DNA of 62,591 nucleotides, filler included, from Platydemus manokwari (taxonomy: Eukaryota), in NCBI GenBank assembly GCA_037951405.1. It is 6 parts of 6 records of this genome, joined end to end, with 100 filler letters (N's around TTAATTAATTAA, not from the genome) between each part and the next. Parts side by side here need not be neighbours in the genome. Positions count along the whole stretch, not along the records: positions 23,435 to 34,099 come from JBBMOY011114775.1; 5 more parts are not named here. One strand, written 5' to 3'. The notes beneath the pieces are model-generated. The model saw nothing but the letters and a program-made list of their open reading frames with translations. It did no database searches and had not been told where the DNA came from. The position numbers were made by a program, and so were the translations under genes. Shown in pieces: positions 23,435-41,200 of the stretch; position 1 is the first letter of the stretch; each line of letters starts with the position of its first letter.

Positions 23435-24243
23435 TTGTTTTAAATAAATTTATGTACAACAAATTTTTATTTCCAATTTTGTCCGCGAACTTTATTTACA
23501 ACCTAATATTTACTACTTAATCCTTAATTTTCATTTATCGATGCGCCTTGATTTGGCATGTATTTCTGAACATGAATTATCAATGTTTTTTTCATTTTGT
23601 TTATTTAACGAAAAATAAAATATCAATAACTATGACTTTGAAATTCAATGAAATTATGTAACCTTCATATTTAAATTAAAAGAATTTAATAATTTTTCAT
23701 GACTATGTAACGGAGAAAAATATCTGCTTATTACAAAAAAGAAGTCATAATAATTGTAATAATATTTGTCCATCACAAAATTGGTATGATTTACCAAATA
23801 ATTCAGTTAGGATTAATTCAAATTTTTTCTAAATTAAATAACAGAGATAAAGATTCAATAAATCCTGCTTTATTTCCGAACATTATATATAAAATGAAGA
23901 TTTTACCTTTCCTGTAAATAAACAATAGAATGAGAAATATAAATAAATATCTATATAGCTTTCGATAAAGATGGAGGTCGAAATCTTGCTGACGTGTTTA
24001 CAATCTATGAAGAAGAATAAAAACTTAAATTCTAATTCAAAAAGGGAACTTTTGATATAAAAAAATAAATTAGAAAAATTTATTTCCTTTAAAAATATAA
24101 TAAATACGGAAGCTGAGGCAAATCAATATTCTAAAATTTTGTTGAATCGAGGTATCAGTGAATTTGATTAACCTTTATATATATAACCTTTATATATATT
24201 TCTATTGTTTTTTTTGTAACTTTACAGCCAACATTACTCAATG

Positions 24244-25185
24244 ATATTATTACCAACTTCTAGGGGCATAGAGTCACAAAAAATCAGCATTATGTACATT
24301 GAATATGTTCATGATATCTATAGGTTTTTATCTAGCTTATGTTAGAAATGTCTTAGTACTGCTATTGATTCTTTTATAATAATGTACATCTAATGTACTA
24401 CTTGATATCTATTATCCAATGTTGGAGACATAAAAGCATATCAATGTGACTCATTATTTGTAAAGAATTATTCCATTTTATCCGTCTAATTTATGAAAAA
24501 TTACATAAGATACCCTTCACCATTTGACCAAGTAAACGAACGAAATAAAAGTATGAAAAAATTGTAAAGAATTCATCTTGAATATGTTTTGCAGCAATGC
24601 CTATTGTTTCTAAAGAAACATTGACAAAGCTAGATCAATATTATTGATAACCAAAGAACACATTTTCAGTGTGACTTGTTAAATTTTCTTTGTCAGTAAA
24701 AATTTTTTTTATAAAATTTTACTTATTCTTCCAAAGAAAATGATGACAATTCCTCTCTATTGTTACTGTTCAATATTATTACCAACTTATGTTAACATAA
24801 AACATCACAAAATATCAGCATTGTGTTTACTGAATATATCCCTGTTATCTATAGGATTTTATCTAGCTTATGGCAGAAACGTCTAGTAATGCTATTGTTT
24901 CGTTTATAATGATGCACATCTACTTTACCGCTCGATATCTATTATCCAATGATGGAGAGATGAAACCAAATCAATACGATCTATCATTTACAAGGAATCA
25001 TTCCATGAAAATGGTAAATTATCTGTCCAATTACATAAGATTTTCTTCAGTTTTTGTCTTAGTAAATGGTTTAAATAAAAGTATTGAAAAATTTGCAAAA
25101 AATTCGTCTGAAAATCTTTTACTGCAATGTCCAGACTTTCAGAAGAAATGTTGACAATACTATAACAAAATTAATGATAACCAGG
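24244..25185. repeat. Diverged direct duplication (about 410-bp units at about 24244-24655 and 24773-25185, period about 530 bp)
   Basis: Shared blocks ATATTATTACCAACTT, ATCTATAGG(T/A)TTTTATCTAGCTTATG, GATATCTATTATCCAATG(T/A)TGGAGA, ATTACATAAGAT and GATAACCA, in the same order and spacing. Confidence 0.88.
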
Positions 25186-26394
25186 TAATCAATTTTTCTA
25201 CGATTTTTAACAAATGTTTTATTCCTTTTTAAAGAAAATAATTGTAATTTTTTAATATCTCATTAATAAATTGCTGTAGAATAAATTATTACAAGTGATG
25301 AATAAATATAAATTATTTTAATACATCGAGAAGCATGAATGAAAATAATACTAGTACATTAGAACAAGTTGGAATAAGAATAATCCTATAATCCTATTTT
25401 AAGAATAAAGTAAAATACTAGTAGCTTTTAAAGGTGGACATTAAAGTGTTTATATTTCAACAAATAGTATTTTAATAAAATAAAATAAATTAAAATATAT
25501 AATTAAATAAAGAAAAAATTAGATACTCATAAAGAATTTTTGATATAACAAAGTACGTACTTCGAAAACATTTTTAGTTAAAGATTTCATAATAAAAATG
25601 GTGTGCAAATTAGATAAAGATATTTACAAAGTTTTCATGAAATAAAATCTTTGCCAATTTATTTATTTAATTTCTTTTAACACATTAAGTGTGATATTGT
25701 TTAAATGCATTTGTACTAATCAAAGAAAATGAACACGGTACAATAAAACTTGTATGAAATGAAAATAACGATAGTAATTTATTTATTTAAATTGGGGAGG
25801 TAAAACAAATTACATTACCATTTTGTTTTCATAACATGTATTTAATAATGATAATATAATGTTGATAATATTTTTGAAACTATTTATTATTCAAATAAAG
25901 TGTTATTTTGGAATGTATTCAATGTCATTATATTAATTAATTTATCTCCGACAAATATTTCAGCCGAATCTTGAAAGGCTTTCAATGCTTGTTAAGCTTT
26001 TTATAATTATTTCTAACGTACTGCAAAAAAGTAATGTTTATGTTATGAAATATTTTTTTATTGTCTGTCTGCTCAAATTGTTTTAATAAGCCGTCGTCCA
26101 ATCGTGCTAATACGTATTGGACGTGCTTTGAGATTTTCCCATACCTTAAAATATTGATTAATCGACGAACCTCCAAAGGAATACAACCAACACGCGTGGA
26201 ACACATTCCCCTACCAGTTCTCAACTGTACGCCAGGCAAGAACTCAAGGTCGGATGATGAAAATTATCCCTTCAAAAATCTTCAACAACTGGCCGACAGA
26301 TACGATGTAACAGCACAAGAAGAAATCATTACCATCCCACCCAGTCAAAGCCTATTAGATACAACGCAATACAGGATTCACCGAATACACCTTA

Positions 26395-29300
26395 ATGGTA
26401 CAAGAAACATTTAAACAACTGCAGCTCACAAGGATATGGGGAAACAGGAATTATGTCCTCGCACTAATTGACACCGGGGCGGATACGACAATCGTCAGCC
26501 CACGCATATTAAATCATAACGAGTTAAGCTGTATGCGAGATACCGACATCACCATCACAGGAATCGGTGAAGAAATCGTACGACCAAGCACATTACTGCC
26601 TTGTTAAATCCATTTCACCGATCATACAATTATGGTAACAGTACGAGTATGTAAAAATTGTCCGATCGATTGTATAATCGGAAAAGATGCCATGAAGCAA
26701 TTTAAGGGAATTCACAACGGGAAAACTAATCCGGATAACCAAGGAACGCGACAGAAAAAATCAAGATGTATACATGAGCGACGATTTTTTTAGTCGAACC
26801 GCGTACAGAAGTAATATGTTTTGCGCACACTAGCGGGCCCGATGGCATCGATATGGCATTCGAAAAAATGAAAAATTCGTGGATAAAAGCGGCATGCCAA
26901 TTGGAGCATGTCTTGCAACAATAAAGGATGGAAAAATCTCAATTAGAATAGCTAACCCATCACAGCAACCCCTTCGCATATATGCCGACTCAAAAATGGG
27001 GGAAGTGACCGAATACTATCTAGTCTCGCAAGAGGTGGTTACTACATCGTTGTATGGACCCTTGTAAGCATAAAGCCCATACATAACCAGTTAACAGTGC
27101 AACAGAATCACAGCATTGCTAAATAAATATGAACAGGCATTCGCCAAAAATGAGTATGATCTAGGCCGGTGTAATCTTTTGCAACATGAAATTGAACTAA
27201 TTGATCCACATCCCATTTGTCAGAGAGCTTATTGAGTACCGGTAAGCATGGAGGCGGAAATAAAACGACAAATCGATGAATTATTAGAGCAAGGACACAT
27301 CAGACCCAGCCATTCACCGTGGCGCTCACCTATAGTAATGGTGAAAAAGAAAGGTGGAGCTATGTGCATGTGCATAGACTATCGGAAAGTAAACGAGCAA
27401 ACACGAAAGGACACGTTCCCACTACCTCTCATCGACGAAATGGTCAACCGCGTCAGAACAGCTGATTTGTTCTCTACGCTTGATTTGAAAACAGGCTATA
27501 ATAACATTCAGATGGAAGAGAAGTCCATCCCAATCAAGGCCTTCACAGAAGGAAAAGGGTTATACAAATATATCGTCATGACGTTTGGACTCACAGGAGC
27601 TCCCGCCACCTTTCAGCGAGCAATGAATTTGATGTTAATGAATATCCAACATGCCATGGTGTACATCGTGCGAATGGGCACGAAAGGAGGTCAAATACCT
27701 CGCACATGTAGTATCGGGACAAGGGATCAAACCGGATAGAGCATATATCACGAAGGTAGAACTCTATCCTCGACCAAAAAACATGAAGCAAATCCAAGAG
27801 TTTTTAGGACTCGTCAATTATTGCAGGAAATTCATCAGAAACTGCGCAGCTATATCTGCACCACTAACACAGTTGTTACAGAAGAATAAACCCTTCAGAC
27901 GGGAGAAGGGGCAAGAAGAGGCCTTCACGCAATTAAAACAAGCCCTAATCGCTGAGTCGATACTAAGACATCCGGATATGTCCAAACCGTTTTTAATCAT
28001 GACCGACGCCAGTGGTTACGCAATAGGAGCAGTGTTAGGCCAGATAGACGACACGACAAGCACCACGAGAAAAACTACGCGGTCATAGAATTAGATGCCC
28101 TAACCATAGTGTATGCAGTCGAAAGATTTCGCATTTTTGTCTATGGGCACGAAATACACGTTCTCACAGACCATAGCCCATTACAATGGCTGCTTCAGCA
28201 CCGAGATACGGTGTCACCCCTCATCAGATGGGCGTTGAAACTACAACAATATAACATAAAAATTTGTTATAGAAAAATGAAGACAAATGGAAATGCCGAC
28301 GCACCATCACGAGCAGACCCATGTGAATACAAAATCGATAAGGAAAATGTGTTCACTGCCCTATACTCGTTAACACATGACAATAATACGCAAGAGCAAT
28401 AGCAAGGAGAACACTTATCCTTTCGAAAGACCCATTGGCGCATCCGGCAGAAATATTACTGGTCAGACATGAAATCACACGTAAGACAATGGTGTCAATC
28501 TTGCCAGGTTTGTCAAACCCGGCTAAACACGGGAAACAGACTGAAGGTACTATTGAAGCCATTGCCGGTACCCAGCGCACCAATGGAGAGATTAGCCATA
28601 GACATAAATGGTCCCCTACCACTAAGCAGAAATGGGAATAAGTACATTTTAATGTTTACAGACCACTTAACTCGATGGTCAGAAGCATTCGCACTACCGG
28701 ACAAACAAGCTCGCACCATTTCCAAGACATTTGTTGAAGAGATCGTGTATAGATACGGCGCTCCGCGTTGTTTATTTACCGATTGAAGTACGGAATTCAT
28801 CAATAAAACATAGGAAGCCATTAACGCGCAATTTAAAATTACAAAATTAACCACCACGGCGCATCATCCCCAGTGTAATGGGCTAGTGGAAAGGATAAAT
28901 TAAACCCTAGTGAGCATGCTCACTTCCTACGCCAATTCAAGTCAAATCAATTGGGATGTCCATATATCCTCATGTCTATATGCATACAGAGTAGCAGAAC
29001 AGGCTAACACACTCTACTCACTATTCTTCCTTATGCACCTTTGGAACAGCAATATGCCAGTAGACGTAGAGATAGTGCCCAAACTATCACAGTATATGGA
29101 CGAAGAGGACTACGTGTACGTGATGAAAGAAAGACTCTCAGAGGCTTGGAGCAAAGCCCAACTAAAAATAAAATTCGTCCAGGAGCAAATGAAAGATGCT
29201 CACGACCAGGATGCCAAACCTCATAATCTAAAAGTTGGAGACAATGTCATGCTGGAGAGCAAGGCATGCAAAAAAGGGGTATCACTTAAATTGATCAGAC

Positions 29301-29530
29301 CCTTTAAAGGACTATACGTCATTGAACAAGTCTCAGATGTCAACCTAGTAATACGAGCATGTGGAAAGGGCACGACGGAACCTATATGGGTTCATGCCAA
29401 TAGATGCAAAAAATATATTCCCACAGAATCCTCAATAGAGACGGTCGCGGGAAAACAACGGAAAGAGGCCACCAAGAAGCCGAAAGCAATAACATCCCAT
29501 ACCGGACAATCATCTCATCGATATCCACTC
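26395..29530 (+). pseudogene. pol: Gypsy pol pseudogene (protease, RT, RNase H, integrase)
   Basis: ORF pieces 26395-26607, 27248-27739, 27651-28088, 28109-28402, 28469-28786 and 28910-29677 carry consecutive pol motifs. An internal deletion near 27669 joins VYI directly to the CEWARKEVKYL segment and removes the YxDD aspartates. Confidence 0.93.
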
Positions 29531-30493
29531 GGATCTTTAGCGGTGTTAACAATCTTAAGCATGTTGTCGCTAACCTCGGCAGAAATGGCAGCATTGATAG
29601 AACCGTCTCATGTCATACGATGGAACGATTTTTTGGATAAGTATTCATGCAGCGGACACGGCCGGCTATATCACTAGAGCCAGTGTCGAGTCGGAAAAGG
29701 GTCGAAATGACAGTAAGCTTATAAAAAAATATTATAAATTCACGGATTTGGTACCACAAAGCGTGGTCACCTTGACAATAACCCAATGGAAATGGGACCC
29801 TCACACATGGTATCGAAGGAAAATTGAACCAGACCGCATACGCTGTCAAAGAAAGGTTGAAATTAAAATGAAGGCATATACAAACAGGCCTATGTCTTGT
29901 AAAATGAAGCCGAAATAATCATAACCAAGATGAGGAGCAAGCGTGGTATGATCATCGGAACCATAACTAGTCGAGATATAAAAGACTTTTTCATGCTAAC
30001 GGACAAGAGGTAGAGAACACCTCGAGACAGATGTGTCACATACCGGATACGGTTGAAAGTCGTAATTTCACCAACAAAACATCTTGTATCGGGAGCAAGT
30101 CAAGTATGTTGATCCGGACCCTGGCTGTTACAGGAACTTTAAGCAGTCATCAACCACCAAGATAACAAGCACAACAGTGAGACCAGCGCACAGGATTCAA
30201 CGACCATCTTGGTTTAAAGCTCGCGACAAAAAGAGGAAACGGATAACAGTTAAATAGGAGACAATCCCGGAGGACTTAACAACGGGACTAATAATACTAA
30301 GCAACATCACACACAGTATGCAAGTCAAGACACAAAAGAAGGACAGGAGGTAGCAGAGAATATGGCAATAATCCTGACTACCTGCCTAATTAGTTTAGCA
30401 ATAATCGTGCCCATCACGATATGTGTCATGCTACACCTCGAACAGAGGGAGCATCAGTACGTTGATGAAACGTACTATGCCTCGACAGTATAA
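29530..30493 (+). pseudogene. Putative env-like type-I membrane protein region fused downstream of integrase (decayed)
   Basis: In frame after integrase: HRYPLGS, then the hydrophobic LAVLTILSMLSLTSA-E (signal-peptide-like). Further downstream, NGT and NNT sequons precede a TM-like MAIILTTCLISLAIIVPITICVML (from 30362), a 20-aa tail, a TAA stop at 30491-30493 and AATAAA. Confidence 0.45.
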
Positions 30494-30670
30494 AATAAAT
30501 AAATCTACGTACCTTAAGCCTTATATATGTATGTAAATAAAATATCCCTATTATAAATGGGATGACAAAATAGCGAAAGCAATATTGATCATTCCAAACC
30601 GTTCATCTCAATCATGATAAAATTGTTGTCTCAACATTATTACTTCTGCTAATGTGTTATTATTTTTTAG

Positions 30671-31430
30671 AAATCATCAACTCAGAAGCCATCCACTCAG
30701 AAGCCAGCAAACAGGCCAGCGATGCAAAGACAACCAATTCCTCTGCATAACTACAACATTTCTTCCTCCCCCACCAATCTCCCAGTGTTTGCAAGTACAT
30801 ATCGAAAAAGGCTCCTGGGAAGAGCTATCACCAATTAATGCTCCAACATAGAGCTAGAGGCGAGCGAATAAAATGCTTCGCCGACCATACGCGGCTGCCA
30901 AACGACCTCAAGTTTAGGACGGCACGGCAGTCATTATGGAAGTTGCCGGAAGACAATAAGACAATACCGCTTCCAGTGGGTGTATGGAAACAAGTTCATG
31001 TTTACTTGCACACCACTACGGAGCCCGTGTCAATATGGATGGGTGTTGCCGAGGAAATGATAGAATTGGCACCACACTACACCTTCGACATAGATATCTG
31101 CGACCAGAGATTGTGCAAGGCCACCATAGAAACCTTCGCACCAAACACAACTCTGGTAATGGAAAGAGAAGGACCCGAACAAACTGGGTACCACTCTCTC
31201 TAAGAGAGGTGTACTCGTACCACTCATTTATCCGCCAGAAGCTAAGTGTAGTAGAAATCAGGAAACAATTATTAATTCTCAATACCCGAATGGTAGCCAC
31301 AGTGGATATGACAATACAGCAGGCAACCGAAAACTCATTAGTTGCCGTAACAATCATTGATTACTGGAGCCAAGTCATCAAATTAGCAAAAGGGACTCAA
31401 CTGACGATTGTTATGATTTTTCAACTTTAA
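30671..31430 (+). pseudogene. Additional accessory coding region of the Gypsy element, unknown product
   Basis: GC-richer, codon-like sequence (ORFs 30838-31203 and 30984-31430) starting after an acceptor-like TATTTTTTAG (30670) and lying upstream of the putative PPT/LTR. Confidence 0.4.
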
Positions 31431-31625
31431 TTATTGTGATACTCATCAACCTTCTGTCTCTTGTTGCTATGTTAAGACTCCATTATGGGTATGCATGTAA
31501 ATAATTTAAAAAAATAATAATTAAATTATGTAAAGTGTAGTTTCCTAAACTCTTTCAATGTTGACCGTCTTACTTCTAATCTTTAAACTGTAATTAATTT
31601 TCTGGACGAAAATCCGAAGAAGTGA

Positions 31626-32499
31626 TGTGATATATCACCATAGCAACACTAAATTCGAAATAAAATAAATCATCAAATCCGACGAACGCCCACATTAAAA
31701 ATTTCTATAAAATAGCGGGCAACGTAGGCGATTTGCCACAAAATTTTTGCCTCAATACATCATAGATTGGGATTGAAAATTTCCACAAAATTTTTTCCCC
31801 CAAAAATTCTGTATTCGTAAGTTGGATACATTTCTCGGCATTGTCAAATCCTCAGCCACCTTCGTACATTGTTATCTTCATTCCTGTATATATCATGCCT
31901 TCAAGTCTCATCAAATTTACATTATGATGCAATCAGTAATTTTTACAATTAATTATATGAGTATCGTGCAAACTCGAAAGAGTTTGTACTGATACTCATT
32001 CTTAAAAATCATTTAGCGGGACAAAGGCTGGAGCATTTGTACCTAGTTCATCGTAAGCTGTAAAGCCGCAAGGATTTGCAGACGTCATCTTTAATTTATA
32101 AGTTAAAATCACATCTCTTTTAGTTTATCGTCCGAATCAAGGAGGCACTTAGTTCATTACGTCGGTTTGTTTTAAACTCTTCAAGATACGACACTACTCT
32201 CTGTCAAATTCTTGCACGACACATTCGTTAATTTTTATTATGATAAACGTATTGTATTACGATTTCGTTACCATTCTTATCATTACTATATTTTACAGTA
32301 TAACGACACGCAACCTATTTACTGATTAAAGTCGGATTATTGGTGGAATAATCATTATTCCGGTTCTAATAATCACTTAATAGTGCATAGATAATTCATC
32401 GAGTTCTGCTAGTTGAATTATCTCTTAGAATCACTCACCAGATACTAATTAACACAGGCTAGTAGGATTCCATCAAAACCAATAAAGACCCACGTAACA
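31626..32499 (+). repeat. Probable 3' LTR of the Gypsy element
   Basis: Purine-rich GAAAATCCGAAGAAGTGA (decayed PPT) followed by TGTGATA. TATA-like CTATAAAAT near 31705. AATAAA (32481) shortly before the CGTAACA end. No partner LTR in the contig to confirm the boundaries. Confidence 0.45.
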
Positions 32500-33989
32500 T
32501 TTGAGCCATTCTTGGGGTACGGTATCATTGGTGAGAAATTGACAAATAAAATAAACAGAGTTGCATTTGAATCGTGTTCTATGATCTTCTCCATTATTAA
32601 TAGCGACGTTAGTAATGAAGTTGGAACTGATTTCTATTTTTTCTAATTTTCTCTAAGAAACTGAATCCTAAATTTGTAGTCCGTTGTAGATTAGTCTGAG
32701 AAGTGCAACTTTGATGGTTTTACAAGCTTTTTCGAGCTAATCTAGATATCTAAAATGATGTTATTGCAGCTTGAACGATAATCAACATTTGTGGTGGGTC
32801 ATTAGCACTGGCTACTGTGTTTTCAATTTCTTTCACCAGCATTAAATGTGTTAGATAACTAGTTCCTGGCTCATTATTAAGTGACAGTTTGCGAAATATT
32901 TGGATATTGTTTGGTTTTTGAAGGAATGGAGTATGAAACACCACTACTTCATTAATGTGGTCCAGGACGTGTGGGTTGACTAAATGCCATAGTTGGATCA
33001 TATCAGTTGCTTTGAACTATCTATAAGTTAAGAAAGTTTGAACAGGATGGATTCTTTGACTTAGTGTTTTATTAGATCAGTGAGTCCAGCTTATACCATA
33101 TTGATTTCTGGCCATATGATAAGTATTGGGATGCAGGATAGATAAAAGAGGCGAATGATTGAGGTTGATCAATAATATATAAATTCTAATGTTTACCAAA
33201 TCACATTGGATTAACTATAAAGCTTTTTTCCATATTGAAGTTTTTGAAATTGAAATGTTAGATAGAAACTTTCGACATTGCTTTGAGTTGTGTCGAAGTC
33301 TTCAGATTTTCTAAATGTGTACTTTCGATTTAACATGTCTGCTTTACATTGTTTAAATGATGTGTTTAAATATGATTACATTATTGATCAATAAAATGTA
33401 AAACTAATCAAAAAAATTATATTATTAATTTTAAAATTGATGAAAATGAGAAATAAGGGATAAAGTGATTATTTGATATATCATATTCTTGAGCTGTATA
33501 AAATAATATTCTAGAGGGAATTCACAACAAACATTATGCATGCAATTCCACCCAAAAACACCATATGAAAAAAATAATTATCAATTTTGATATCTTTAAT
33601 AACTCCATCCGATGTTATTAGAGGTAACTGAAAATATAGATTTAAAACATGATAATGGAAATTTCAAAAAAAAATTGAACAATACCAGAACATGATAATT
33701 AATAAATTAGATAAACACTGGTACATAGCTTATGATAACGAAACTGAAATGAAATTGAGAGGAAATGTTATAATATATCATGTAATATTGGGTTTCTACT
33801 TTGTTGTATTATATTGAATTACAATAGTTAAAATTTCGAAATTGTCTGTGCAAGTTAATAATTCGAATTTAAATATTTAAAAACTTCATCTTCCAAATGT
33901 TCATTGAAATAATAATTTTAAATATTGTAAATTATTTTGATATTTTTCAAAATTGTTATAAAAATAAACCTTTTTATTGAAATGTTTTG

Positions 33990-34099
33990 ATAGTCAGAAG
34001 GCGCCAAGTCTGGGCTATATGTCGGGTGGGGCAGAACTTCCCACCCGCTATTTTCTAAATAGGTTTTAACGGGTTGAGCAACATGTGGCCGAGCATTGT
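33990..34099 (-). mobile_element. Mariner transposase fragment at contig end
   Basis: Minus strand translates (D)NARPHVAQPVKTYLENSGWEVLPHPTYSPDLAPSDY, containing the diagnostic mariner YSPDLAPSD motif. Confidence 0.93.
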
Positions 34100-34545: not shown

Positions 34546-35987
34546 ATGGCATCTAAAATAACAGGAAAATTAAACCCTTCAATCACTGGATTGGATCCAA
34601 GTTTTAAATTAACAAAGTTCACCAATTTGAAAGGATGAGGATGTAAAGTTCCTCAAGCGGTACTGAAAGAACTGCTTGTGGAACTTACAAACTCCGGATT
34701 TAACAACGAAGGTGACACTAAATCATCTCTTGTTAAACCATTGATAGGTTATACATTATTGCAACTAGTATATGAACTAATATCGGATTTTAGGTGTTGG
34801 CTTAGATTCTTGTGTTATTCCTTTAAAATTTAATAATTTACAACTTGTTCAAACAACTGATTTCTTTTATCCATTAATTGATGATCCATATACTATGGTT
34901 ATTTGTAATTTTATTATGAAGTTTTAAATAATATTTTCCATGTACATTGGTTGTTGTTTTCTAACGACGTATTTAATTGTAGGGTCGTATTGCATGTTGT
35001 AACGTTTTGAGTGATTTATATGCTATGGGAGTGGATTCGTGTGATAATTTGCTCATGCTTCTTGGTGTTAGTAGTCTTATGACCGAAATGGAACAAAAAA
35101 TCGCAATACCTCTTATGATTAAAGGTTTCAATGTATGTTTATTTGAATCATTTTAAATATGGTGAGGAAAACAATAGGAATTTATTGATGTTTGATTGTA
35201 TCAGGAATGTGCAGCAGAGGCCGGATCAAGTGTTCAAGGAGGACAAACTGTTGTTAATCCTTGGCTTCTCATAGGTGGTGTGGCTACATCTGTGTGTTCA
35301 AGAGATGAAATGATAATGTTTATTTACAATAATTGTGTAGAATATCCATTGAAATCATCTAATATAGGCCTCATAATGCTATTGAAGGTGATGTTCTCGT
35401 GCTCACAAAACCATTGGGTACCCAAATAGCTGTCAATGCGTATCAGTGGATGACAGATCAAATGCCTCGATATGATAAAATCAAAACCCTTGTCAAACCA
35501 GTCGAGATTGAAGATCTATTTGAGAAAGCCACCAATCAAATGGCTTCACTTAATCGACAGGGTTGTGACACACACACTATATATGAGGTTGATATTTGAT
35601 TTCAATGTTTGTCATTTAGGTGCATCACTGTTGCGCAAATATCAAGCGCACGCTTGTACGGATGTGACTGGATTTGGTTTGCTTGGACATGCGACAAATC
35701 TTGTCGAAACCCAACAGGCCAGTGTTGATTTTGTGATTAATAGGCTGCCATGTTTGAAATTTGCCATGGAGATCGATACGGCTTTGGATGGAGCTATGAA
35801 GTTGAGGAGGGGATTTTCACCTGAAACATCTGGTGGACTTTTTGCTGCTATAGACAAAGATCGAGTTGATGCGTTTGTTGAGGAAATGAATTCTCTCAGT
35901 GGATGTCGAGCTTGGATTGTTGGAACTGTGACGCGAGGTTCGAGAAAGGCTTGGATTGAAGAAAATGCGGAAATTATTAATGTTTAA
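34546..35987 (+). CDS. SEPHS2: Selenophosphate synthetase 2 (selenoprotein; Sec at codon 31), 6 exons, 376 aa
   Basis: Exons 34546-34747, 34794-34897, 34983-35132, 35205-35317, 35368-35561 and 35620-35987; all GT-AG, phases consistent, 1131 nt in total. Motifs LTKFTNLKG(UGA)GCKVPQ (TGA at 34636-34638), [48 protein letters not shown] and PETSGGL. Confidence 0.96.
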
Positions 35988-37304: not shown

Positions 37305-38219
37305 CTAAATATGACTCAATGTTCCCATCATTATACTCTTCTGTCTATTATGAATTGAGTATCGAAATTCTTCATTTTGATAATTGTAGAAATTTCGAAG
37401 ATAATTTTTTGCCGTGAAAACAATCCACACAACAAGGCAAAATATCAGAAGCATAGCCAGAACGACTAGTCCCATCCCTCTCCACTGTGCTTGAGATTCT
37501 TCATTACTAGTTTGTGGAGAAAATAGAAACAGTGCCGCTTTTATGCAAAAATATACTGCTGTGATGGTGCTTGGCACAAGGAAAAGAAAACACAAACTAT
37601 CACCTACGAAGGATTTTTGGCGAGAAATTTGTTGGAACCACATTCTGCAATTTGGTTTCTTCTTTCGCATATCATACTTGCATTTACAAATCTCACAGTG
37701 TTCATTTGCTGAAATCTGTATCCATTGCTCCAAGCACGAAGAATGCATCAAGCCCACTGTTCCTTTACAACGGCATGGTGAAAGTAGCTTTTCATTATCC
37801 TTCTCGTAGTCGAGACAAATCCGACATTTCAACATTGATATTCTAGACGAATTTCTAAAATTTGAATTCTGTTGCTCACTAAACGAGGAGTTTTGAACGT
37901 TCCAAGAACTACTTTGATTCGTAGATATTTTATCTGGGGTTGTTTGAACTGATATTGATACCACAGCGTAATTGGTTAAATCAAAAGACACTTTAGTATC
38001 AGGATTCCCAGAAAGTCCTGGTTCTGGGGATAGACTCAATCTTGGGATCGCAGATAAAACACTGCCTGAATTGATTGAATGATCTGATAAACAATCAATG
38101 GATTGATTGTGTAAATCCAAATTGACTCCAGAAGGCCTCGGGGTATCTGGGAATCTATCAGTTATCATTTTATTGCTTTCAGTTGGTGTTGAAGTTATGT
38201 AATCCTCTCTGAACTGCAT
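37305..38219 (-). CDS. MARCH-family RING-CH E3 ubiquitin ligase (MARCH2/3-like), 304 aa, single coding exon
   Basis: C4HC3 RING-variant CRIC...SPCRCKGTVGLMHSSCLEQW...CEICK, followed by two hydrophobic TM segments (DSLCFLFLVPSTITAVYFCI and GLVVLAMLLIFCLVVWIVF). Ser-rich low-complexity N-terminus. Confidence 0.92.
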   Translation of the reverse strand: MQFREDYITSTPTESNKMITDRFPDTPRPSGVNLDLHNQSIDCLSDHSINSGSVLSAIPRLSLSPEPGLSGNPDTKVSFDLTNYAVVSISVQTTPDKISTNQSSSWNVQNSSFSEQQNSNFRNSSRISMLKCRICLDYEKDNEKLLSPCRCKGTVGLMHSSCLEQWIQISANEHCEICKCKYDMRKKKPNCRMWFQQISRQKSFVGDSLCFLFLVPSTITAVYFCIKAALFLFSPQTSNEESQAQWRGMGLVVLAMLLIFCLVVWIVFTAKNYLRNFYNYQNEEFRYSIHNRQKSIMMGTLSHI

Positions 38220-41200
38220 GGAAAATTGTTACAGATGTAATAGAAATGAGTAAAATTGCATCGATCGAAATTTACCAATCAATAACCAATCACCTGTTTG
38301 TGTGTGTGTGCGTATTCGATAAACTCGTTGACTGCAGCTATTGACGCAACCAATTTGTGAGACAGCAATGAGCAATCGAATACAAATTTCACTACATGGT
38401 TTTCCATGCACTCTTTCTCTGTAGTTACCGCTAGTGATAATGTGAGATGTCAGAGAAAATTACTACTATCTATAATCTGTTATCAGAGATTTCAGAGGTT
38501 TGATACATGATAGTGAATGTTTTGATTTCAAATCATTTTATTCTCCCTAGTTTTCAGCATACTACTGACCGTATATCTCATGGAATTGCATGCATTAATC
38601 AATTTATCAGACAGAATATATCGATTAATATTAGACAACAAAAGATTAACAGAACACGTTTCAGACATTTATTAATTGCACGTGATTATTGCCATGAATC
38701 ACATTTCTATTTCTTATCTTTTTTATTTTGTTTAGGCTCAGATTTGTAGTGCCTCGATTGAATTTTGTGTTTGTGATGGAAAATATTTTTGGTCATCAAA
38801 GTTTACAGTTGCTCTTCCTTATCATAGACAAGTTTTTTGAAAAGATTTTTTTGTATAGTTCAAACAAAAGTTTTGCTAAATATAAAGGATAAAATTGAAT
38901 GTTGAATGTTGGATAATTAGTTGAGTAGTAGTGATAATTAATTGTTGAGATTACTCATGGAATAATGATTGGAAAGAACAGGAAATCACATGATAACGCA
39001 ATAAATCAATAATTTCAATGACTTACTTGACGATACAAAATATTTGAAGTTATGCAAATATAAAAATGGCATCTTTTATTGCTAAGTGATCAAGCAATCA
39101 CAAACTTTTAACATTGGCCCTTATATTTTGATTGAAGAATATCTGTTTCTTCATATTTAATAAATCTATTTTTATTTCTTCTATTCTATCAGTTGGTTTT
39201 TATTTTTTCGTTGTTCCAGATTTCCTAGTTTTTTATATTTCTGATTCTCACCTCTCCATGCATTATTAATCTGTTGCAATTGTAAAGCCGTGTTCCTTTA
39301 CCACTTTCAATTGAAATATAGCTGTAATTTGTGAATATTAGCGTGATACTTATATGGGATGAAGTCTTAAAAAAAATGAAAATTACTGTGAAGTATGTGA
39401 CAAAAACGATCAAAATACCTACCTAGACCATGGAATAATCCTCAATGAGTCGATATGTACGCACGCTTAGTGCTTGTGTCAGTGGCCAATCAGATGCCTC
39501 CAAAATATGTTTGAGTACAACCTCTAATAATAAAGATAGATAACAATTAATATAACATTTTTTCCAATAGAAGCGAGTCATCCCTCACAGAAAATATATC
39601 AAACCTAAAATAGGATAAAATAAATACATAAATAGAAAGAAAAATTATTAATATTTAAGAATAATAATTACAAAAGATAAATAATAAAAATAGTATCAAG
39701 ATGATATACTAATACTAACATGCAAAAATAAAATAAAAATAAATCAATATAAACAATCATCGAAGTCATAAAATTTTGAACAAAAAATACTATAACCGGA
39801 TGCTTGACAGAATAATCGACAAATACTAAAGTCTACTACGAAATTAGCCTTGTTATTTACTCTCATCATTGTTATCGACAAATAATTACTCTACTGTGGA
39901 ATTGGTCTCATTCAACGCACTACTCTTATAGTTAATTACTCTCCAAAGGAAATATCATCATTCAAAGCTAACGGTAAAAGTATAAATTCCCGATCATCAA
40001 GCTTCAGAAATCTTAAAATCAAAGAACAATCTTAAAGTAGTAGTTAAGGTACCATTGGACCTAACCACTGATAAAATCTATTTATAACTTTTATGAACAA
40101 GGCCATAAGAGGCTTACAAAATCAATAAAGTTCTATCAAAATAGAACAACACAATAGTGCGATAAATAAAAAGTCACCCCTGCTGGTTATTTGCATAAAT
40201 TATCATTAATATTGCAATCCAGTTCGAATTTTGTCATTATCAATCTTATTGTGTTTATTGTGATATTAATTATATTTTATTCAGATCAATAAGTTATTTA
40301 TTCAATTATTGATTTATAGAATAATATCATATCTAGTTCATAATTTACATACATCTTTTGGAGTCAAGTGTACTTATCGAATATTATTAATAAACAATGC
40401 AATGGAACTCAGCTTATTTATAGGGTTTCAATACTCACTGAATTTTAAATACTCACACTTATTTCCAATTATTAAATATTGATTTTTAACTGATAGAAAA
40501 TGATAATCCTTTTGGTGGTAATTTTTTGTTGCAAGCTGTTACGAGAAAGACAAATGGTGCTTATATAAACAATAGAGAAAACAAATTATTTATAAAGGTC
40601 GGGTTAAATAAGAAATGAATAATGAATATTAAATAAAGAAAAATTAATTAAATATGAAGACATTAGAATTAAATGATAAAAGTGCTATGTAAAAGGCAAG
40701 CATGGGTCGAATACTTGCATAGGGTTAAGCAATACTCTCTTACCATATCAACAATATTCTTTTGAAATAATTGTTGGATACAATACTGCAGAGGTGGCCT
40801 TTTCATTTGAATAACATCTCACACGATCGACTAAAATTGGCTTCAAGATCGACCAGTTGACCACCCTACAATACTGTAATGAAATAATCAATAAATTATG
40901 CATAAAAATTTTGTCGTGACTCATCTCTGAATAATAAATACAAAGAATATTTTTCACCCGAAATAAGAAAATACAGGAATAGAAATATAACTAATATTTA
41001 CCAAATATGGGAAAACACATAAATAAAAATAGTAATAATAAATACTAATAATAACAAAGAAAATAATTAATTAAAAAAGTATCAATTAAACTTGATCAAA
41101 ATAAAGTCGCCCTTTTATAAACTCCAGTTAATTGTCGAATATGATAAAATGAATAATCACATAAACTATCACAGGTTTGCGAGTCTCATTTAAATAATAA

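Follow-up and report, generated by a model that had tools for sequence, protein, structure and literature searches.

Whether a Gypsy retroelement of Platydemus manokwari (GenBank assembly GCA_037951405.1) carries an envelope-like membrane protein in frame behind its integrase, and what such a protein might do, is the question raised by a stretch of 62,591 nucleotides, filler included, which joins six parts of this genome and is referred to here as the window. The element sits in the third part (positions 23435-34099, contig C1114775). The original prediction proposed the capture of an envelope or membrane protein by a non-insect Gypsy lineage, with an ectodomain possibly shortened by internal deletion.

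The window copy and its reading frames

The window element is a decayed Gypsy copy on the plus strand, in which protease (PR), reverse transcriptase (RT), RNase H (RH) and integrase (INT) are scattered over several frames and occur in the order PR-RT-RH-INT that defines Ty3/Gypsy elements. An aspartic protease remnant (26443-26712, recognized by sequence and profile matches) is followed by decayed RT and RNase H sequences in several frames (27158-28330; Pfam RVT_1 and RT_RNaseH) and by an integrase with H2C2, core and C-terminal parts, basic linker and internal stops (28406-29518; Pfam and profile matches). Gag and a gB-type env are missing upstream of the protease; the copy is truncated at its 5' end near 26160-26283, hence its lack of a gB-type Env, and sister copy L026, 79% identical from 26283 onward, carries gB sequence directly upstream. 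No 5' LTR is present in the window, the copy being 5'-truncated, and a probable 3' LTR (TGATG...CATCA) occupies 31623-32475, its right edge common to four other copies and its left edge inferred. An ORF3 remnant (30769-31430), comprising an AlkB/2OG-oxygenase-like fold and the start of an ISG20-like exonuclease fold, has lost about 1.0-1.1 kb near 31370. The window copy is dead, a fossil whose 5' part, including gag and gB, is lost.

Several other features of the window were recorded in passing. A short abundant repeat (26090-26160; 38 further matches at 80-87%) adjoins the truncated 5' end, and at 24244-25183 lies an old tandem duplication whose units, about 530 nt apart, are 72-84% identical. 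Two host gene pieces are found at 35454-35987 (plus strand), which contains an AIRS_C domain and which we take to be selenophosphate synthetase-like, and at 37305-38228 (minus strand), where a RING-variant ORF, presumably MARCH-like, is uninterrupted and has two hydrophobic segments.

As originally predicted, the integrase frame (28904+3k) runs on past the linker through the motif RYPLGS (29519-29536; RYPLRS in relatives) into a 15-residue hydrophobic stretch ending S-A-E (29537-29584), and this segment (29519-29584) comprises the motif and a predicted internal signal peptide with its cleavage site placed by eye. The prediction of an integrase ORF extending beyond the linker thus stands, while the implied continuous frame to the transmembrane (TM) segment does not exist: the ORF terminates at a TAG at 29675, and 13 internal stops follow in the integrase frame between 29675 and 30251, ahead of the TM segment. 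Pairwise comparison with other copies revealed a 1-nt indel at 29634 in two of them relative to the window, and further frame breaks in the window near 29887, 30060 and 30290. A family ectodomain profile built from 11 natural fragments, with the window row left out, matches at 29616-29849 in the +1 frame (E 1e-5 at Z=1000) and, back in the integrase frame, at 29882-30082 (E 1.3e-5). These two segments correspond to a first fibronectin type III (FN3)-type domain, its fold taken from relative L073 and its frame broken near 29634, and to a second one, with the breaks near 29887 and 30060 as well as internal stops. The Cys/Trp-containing stretch after WNDF, which had been read as an in-frame continuation, is most likely off-frame, beyond the break near 29634.

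Further downstream, a broken stalk rich in Lys/Arg and Ser/Thr/Pro (30083-30361) holds a KKRKR in the +1 frame (30228-30242) and two sequons (30281-30298). It is followed at 30362-30493 by the predicted TM anchor, a 24-residue hydrophobic segment (30362-30433, KD 2.8), and a short Tyr-containing tail that ends in S-T-V, a class I PDZ-type ending, before a TAA at 30491 and an AATAAA at 30494; anchor and tail share 75% amino-acid identity with copy L002. Sequons, TM-like segment, tail, stop, AATAAA and the off-frame KKRKR had all been located correctly. KKRKR was considered as a furin site and rejected, as it does not conform to the canonical R-x-K/R-R and no such site exists in three intact relatives. 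From the RYPLGS motif to the stop the window measures 973 nt versus 1038, 1140 and 1182 nt in three open-frame relatives, lengths close enough that nothing large can have been deleted; the suspected internal deletion is thereby contradicted, and the ectodomain is naturally short. A single public run covering this stretch contains no alternative letters and no small gaps, and is not independent because it is possibly the assembly's own source; no RNA data set was listed as containing the sequence.

Family relatives and the predicted fold

A DNA search of the genome returned 24 matches including the window element itself, the others at 64-94% identity, and an integrase search returned 149, of which 30, self included, were examined. 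At 17 of the 29 non-self loci, counted after removal of five spurious rows, an RY-P/N motif and then a hydrophobic stretch occur right behind integrase. In L064 (1472 aa), L065 (963 aa) and L073 (479 aa) the frame is naturally open from Pol sequence up to the tail's last codon, and no stop right after integrase is seen in these relatives; all three are open through the junction and encode Pol, signal peptide, ectodomain, basic stalk, TM segment and short tail as one polyprotein. Their stalks contain 16-24% Lys+Arg and 24-27% Ser+Thr+Pro, and the post-integrase ectodomain including the stalk comprises 267-322 residues with 3-5 Cys. For the ectodomain, dN/dS is 0.10 in two pairs; the stalk has 0.23, and TM segment and tail have 0.07. 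These values are rough because synonymous sites are near saturation. Fragments of the window give 0.16-0.73 versus close copies, as expected of decayed sequence. Given the many breaks in the window frame and the AT-rich DNA, the hydrophobic stretches might be due to chance or the region to a nested insertion unrelated to the element, a reading that is hardly credible in view of the same layout at the 17 other integrase loci, the open frames, the low ectodomain dN/dS and a confidently predicted fold. The post-integrase membrane-protein extension is real at the family level and under purifying selection. As a separate observation among the loci, a frame at L010:6-581 resembles by eye the Rep helicase of circular DNA viruses (Walker A motif), with no Pfam match at E 0.01.

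Pfam yielded nothing useful for the ectodomain, and fn3 in particular had no match there, its best trace (E 0.21) lying in protein P0048 from outside this genome. An AlphaFold2 model of the L073 ectodomain, obtained from an alignment of 12 natural fragments, consists of two beta sandwiches with about 180 ordered residues, strands only and no helix (mean pLDDT 75; about 90 in the first domain, 58-84 in the second). Foldseek against the PDB gave 103 matches at E up to 0.001, and the listed rows are nearly all FN3 (best E 2.7e-5). A VIA comparison of the L073 model with one FN3 domain resulted in Z 9.6 and rmsd 2.2 over 80 residues, and one with tandem FN3 in Z 10.9 and rmsd 9.3 over 167 residues; L073, the source of the fold, is 22% identical to the window fragment. 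Hence, the prediction for the ectodomain is a pair of fibronectin type III domains, firm for the first and weaker for the second.

In a viral fold search the named matches were mostly FN3 or tail proteins, and no fusogen occurred among its named rows (many rows being unnamed) or in the PDB fold searches. Class I and class III fusogens possess a long central helix and an ectodomain of several hundred residues, and class II fusogens a three-domain, Cys-rich ectodomain of about 400 residues. Identity as a class I or III fusogen was rejected on the small, strand-only model and the lack of a PF24664 match in the post-integrase part, and identity as a class II fusogen on the length, the few Cys and the two separate sandwiches. 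A Drosophila-type env, a separate ORF after pol encoding an F-type fusogen, does not apply either, since the protein is fused to Pol and modelled with no helix. By its model, the protein is not a fusogen but a small type I membrane protein built like a host receptor. The proposal of a membrane or env protein in frame behind integrase therefore holds for a membrane protein and for its being part of the element, and fails for an envelope fusogen.

In a nematode BEL/Pao element, Atlas virus, the glycoprotein is reportedly fused to pol through an internal signal peptide. It is likewise a membrane glycoprotein placed after pol, as portrayed in parts of the source, although Atlas virus is BEL/Pao, not Gypsy, and its glycoprotein is a phlebovirus-like class II fusogen (PMC9094657). 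The signal-like stretch, sequons, TM segment and post-pol position resemble this env (PMC9094657, in part) and could be taken to indicate a captured envelope fusogen shortened by deletion. This is very improbable, given a length as in intact relatives, the helix-free model of about 180 ordered residues, the 3-5 Cys without an R-x-K/R-R site in the three intact relatives, and a true class III fusogen encoded upstream.

With host tandem-FN3 type I proteins (neogenin, Tie2, LAR, CD45, interferon receptors), the element's protein has the predicted fold, the single anchor and the short tail in common; it differs by a sequence identity of 6-15% and by its encoding inside a retroelement polyprotein. 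No host donor gene was found. Sequence relatives of the ectodomain outside the genome numbered 0 of 92 and 0 of 251 candidates in two weak searches, the ESM Atlas gave no usable ectodomain match, and the PDB searched by sequence gave none. FN3 is a general scaffold, and the common fold by itself shows no function.

A gB-type fusogen upstream and the wider clade

In L062/L063, one open frame of 3304 aa (L062:1515-9998) encodes gag, a gB-type env, pol and a post-integrase membrane protein, in the order zinc knuckles, hydrophobic leader, PF24664 (E 3e-95), TM segments, protease, RT, RNase H and integrase, followed by a C-terminal extension with signal-like and TM segments that the FN3 profile does not match. 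PF24664 has 76 matches in the genome. The gB and FN3 genes lie in order on one strand at 8 of 47 loci tabulated, and L153 unites gag, gB, RT, RH, INT, FN3 and ORF3 in one locus. A gB-type env between gag and pol occurs in L023, L025, L026, L079, L153 and L062; the first three are copies of the window's family (70-87% DNA identity) with gB upstream, but internally deleted.

An RT tree of 41 rows places the window in a clade of 11 with support 100/100. Among its ten neighbours there, seven have gB upstream and nine the FN3 protein; of those without gB, L064 and L150 begin inside pol and L075 has none in 4.6 kb upstream. The window's subfamily includes no copy with gB and FN3 gene both intact, its linkage of the two coming from decayed, internally deleted copies in a fragmented assembly. 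The family layout reads gag - gB - PR - RT - RH - INT - signal-like stretch - ectodomain - stalk - TM - tail - ORF3. Judged by profile matches and gene order, the clade's fusogen is a gB-type Env of class III that is encoded between gag and protease, apart from the FN3 protein. Since gB of L062 resembles by eye a planarian errantivirus Env (22 of 33 residues alike to Smed_errantivirus_1 in one stretch), the proposed non-insect Gypsy lineage is likely.

Errantiviruses of the GAG-ENV-POL type with a gB-type Env are said to have been reported by Sacco et al. in 2022, as cited by Chary and Hayashi. Such elements, with HSV/gB-type Env, are known in Platyhelminthes, Nematoda and Bryozoa and, in the portions of the source bearing on them, resemble the present family in having a Ty3/Gypsy Pol and, between gag and pol, a gB-type Env of class III (PMC13524379, Chary and Hayashi). 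In contrast to this published layout, so far as those portions extend, the family adds a second membrane protein behind integrase and ORF3. The searchable main text of that paper contains none of the words 'fibronectin', 'readthrough', 'exonuclease' and 'accessory', and the seven files of its supplement, long cells being covered to 400 characters, do not contain 'fibronectin' (PMC13524379). Bdelloid rotifer LTR elements are Gypsy-type as well, and the relevant passages of their description give them short TM-bearing ORFs and DEDD-family exonucleases after pol, with a separate ORF3, a nuclease of the DEDDy (RNase D-like) type with the motif DEED, and no FN3 named (Rodriguez et al. 2017, PMC5408684). 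Here, in contrast, Pol continues into the TM protein, and the nuclease resembles ISG20 and is without the acids of the first motif. Literature searches, with subscription papers sparsely covered, listed no paper on an FN3 protein encoded behind the integrase of a Gypsy element. The second, FN3-type membrane protein fused behind integrase thus appears to be new, and the GAG-ENV-POL layout with a gB-type Env is known.

Pol proteins from outside this genome exhibit a similar arrangement. The eight closest of 120 listed (seven ena records and one ncbi record, P0048) are 55-58% identical; judged partly by eye, all eight continue past integrase with a signal-like stretch, and seven reach a TM segment and tail, the remaining one being truncated. 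P0022 and P0106 carry protease-like and ankyrin domains between integrase and membrane protein. The outside proteins and the elements of this genome fall into one integrase clade with support 99 in a quick version of the tree that gave long-branch warnings among outgroups. The outside ectodomains do not match the FN3 family profile (hhalign probability under 2%). The outside Pol proteins thus appear to share the layout, and the FN3 fold is predicted for the family protein alone. Separately, P0021 was seen to have a signal-beta domain-TM unit before its protease as well.

Tail, ORF3 and possible roles

Class I PDZ-binding motifs follow the pattern S/T-x-V/I/L at the C-terminus. Of 30 rows with a hydrophobic segment and stop, three were dropped as not representing the element's TM segment, and 16 of the remaining 27 tails end in this pattern; premature stops or frameshifts affect most of the remaining 11, and the tails of L063 and L066 have other endings without a PDZ-type motif. 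The pattern also ends five of seven complete outside proteins versus 4 of 112 other Pol matches. It spans subfamilies with ectodomains 16-31% identical to L073, related copies not being independent of each other. HTLV-1 reportedly offers a precedent for a PDZ motif in a retroviral Env tail.

Directly behind 12 of the 27 tails stands TGA-CAR-YYA (e.g. L064:2150-2152, L065:2890-2892 and L073:1984-1986), and eight of these sites are open in frame into ORF3. As background, 10 of the 1973 TGA triplets counted across eight of the loci have this context, a figure that includes the real sites, and the window's subfamily ends in TAA without this sequence. According to the pertinent part of one source, CARYYA is the tobamovirus-type (Type I) readthrough signal and functions with UGA (PMC3542737). 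Between L064 and L065, pS is 0.15 in the linker versus 0.6-0.9 elsewhere, which points to suppressed synonymous change; a two-sequence fold of the readthrough linker gives hairpins and no covariation. ORF3 itself consists of an AlkB/2OG-oxygenase-like domain (Z 11.0, rmsd 2.7, 143 residues) followed by an ISG20-like exonuclease domain (E 1e-9 to ISG20L2; Z 15.5, rmsd 3.0, 152 residues to ISG20), and is longer in L064 (323-2149). By eye, the first-motif D-x-E positions are non-acidic in nearly all rows, and the ISG20-like domain, without the first-motif acids of DEDDh, seems catalytically inactive. A hydrophobic stretch lies within the linker, and the topology proposed below leaves the membrane side of ORF3 unexplained.

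We regard it as moderately likely that the FN3 membrane protein is an adhesion or attachment protein beside gB in this Gypsy family. The polyprotein would thread the ER membrane twice, and signal peptidase would free the FN3 protein from integrase. Its S/T-x-V/I/L end would bind PDZ scaffolds and, together with Tyr or PPxY-like motifs, would place it at cell contacts, where the protein would tether particles or donor cells to target cells and gB would fuse. In many subfamilies, that of the window excepted, ORF3 would be appended through a leaky TGA.

Two FN3 domains, a TM segment and a PDZ-type tail are also the layout of a host receptor, and the element has an ORF3 with folds of RNA-defence enzymes. 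The protein might accordingly have no role in entry and, on the host-cell surface, mimic a host receptor with two FN3 domains as a decoy or in signalling, or else promote release as glyco-Gag does; glycosylated Gag of gammaretroviruses, found on cells and not in virions, aids release (PMC3542737). We consider this rather unlikely, as no host donor was found and the FN3 protein, where frames are open, shares one polyprotein with Gag, gB and Pol and is therefore tied to particle production. A further possibility rests on herpesviruses, in which gH/gL or gD are folding or triggering partners of gB: the FN3 protein co-occurs with gB throughout the RT clade and could be such a partner. In line with this, herpes gB acts as part of a glycoprotein complex; however, the same source describes, in the sections concerned, insect gB-type errantiviruses with gag, pol and env only (PMC13524379). 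Moreover, gB is conserved in the wider clade, whose ectodomains differ greatly from one another, and we hold a role as folding or triggering partner to be unlikely.

An attachment protein beside gB is hence the preferred reading. Env-bearing retrotransposons have been described with one envelope protein, and the second surface protein is, to our knowledge, a first concrete candidate for what lets the gB-type ones recognize target cells, be it an attachment protein or a triggering partner. Surveys that look for env genes by their fusogens miss such cargo at the Pol end. Quite tentatively, a broad invertebrate Gypsy clade may practise two-glycoprotein entry like large enveloped viruses, with a conserved class III fusogen before Pol and, after it, an FN3 attachment protein that would be of host origin and exchangeable, aimed at cell junctions by a PDZ-binding tail and accompanied by a readthrough-controlled decoy of two inactive RNA-defence folds.
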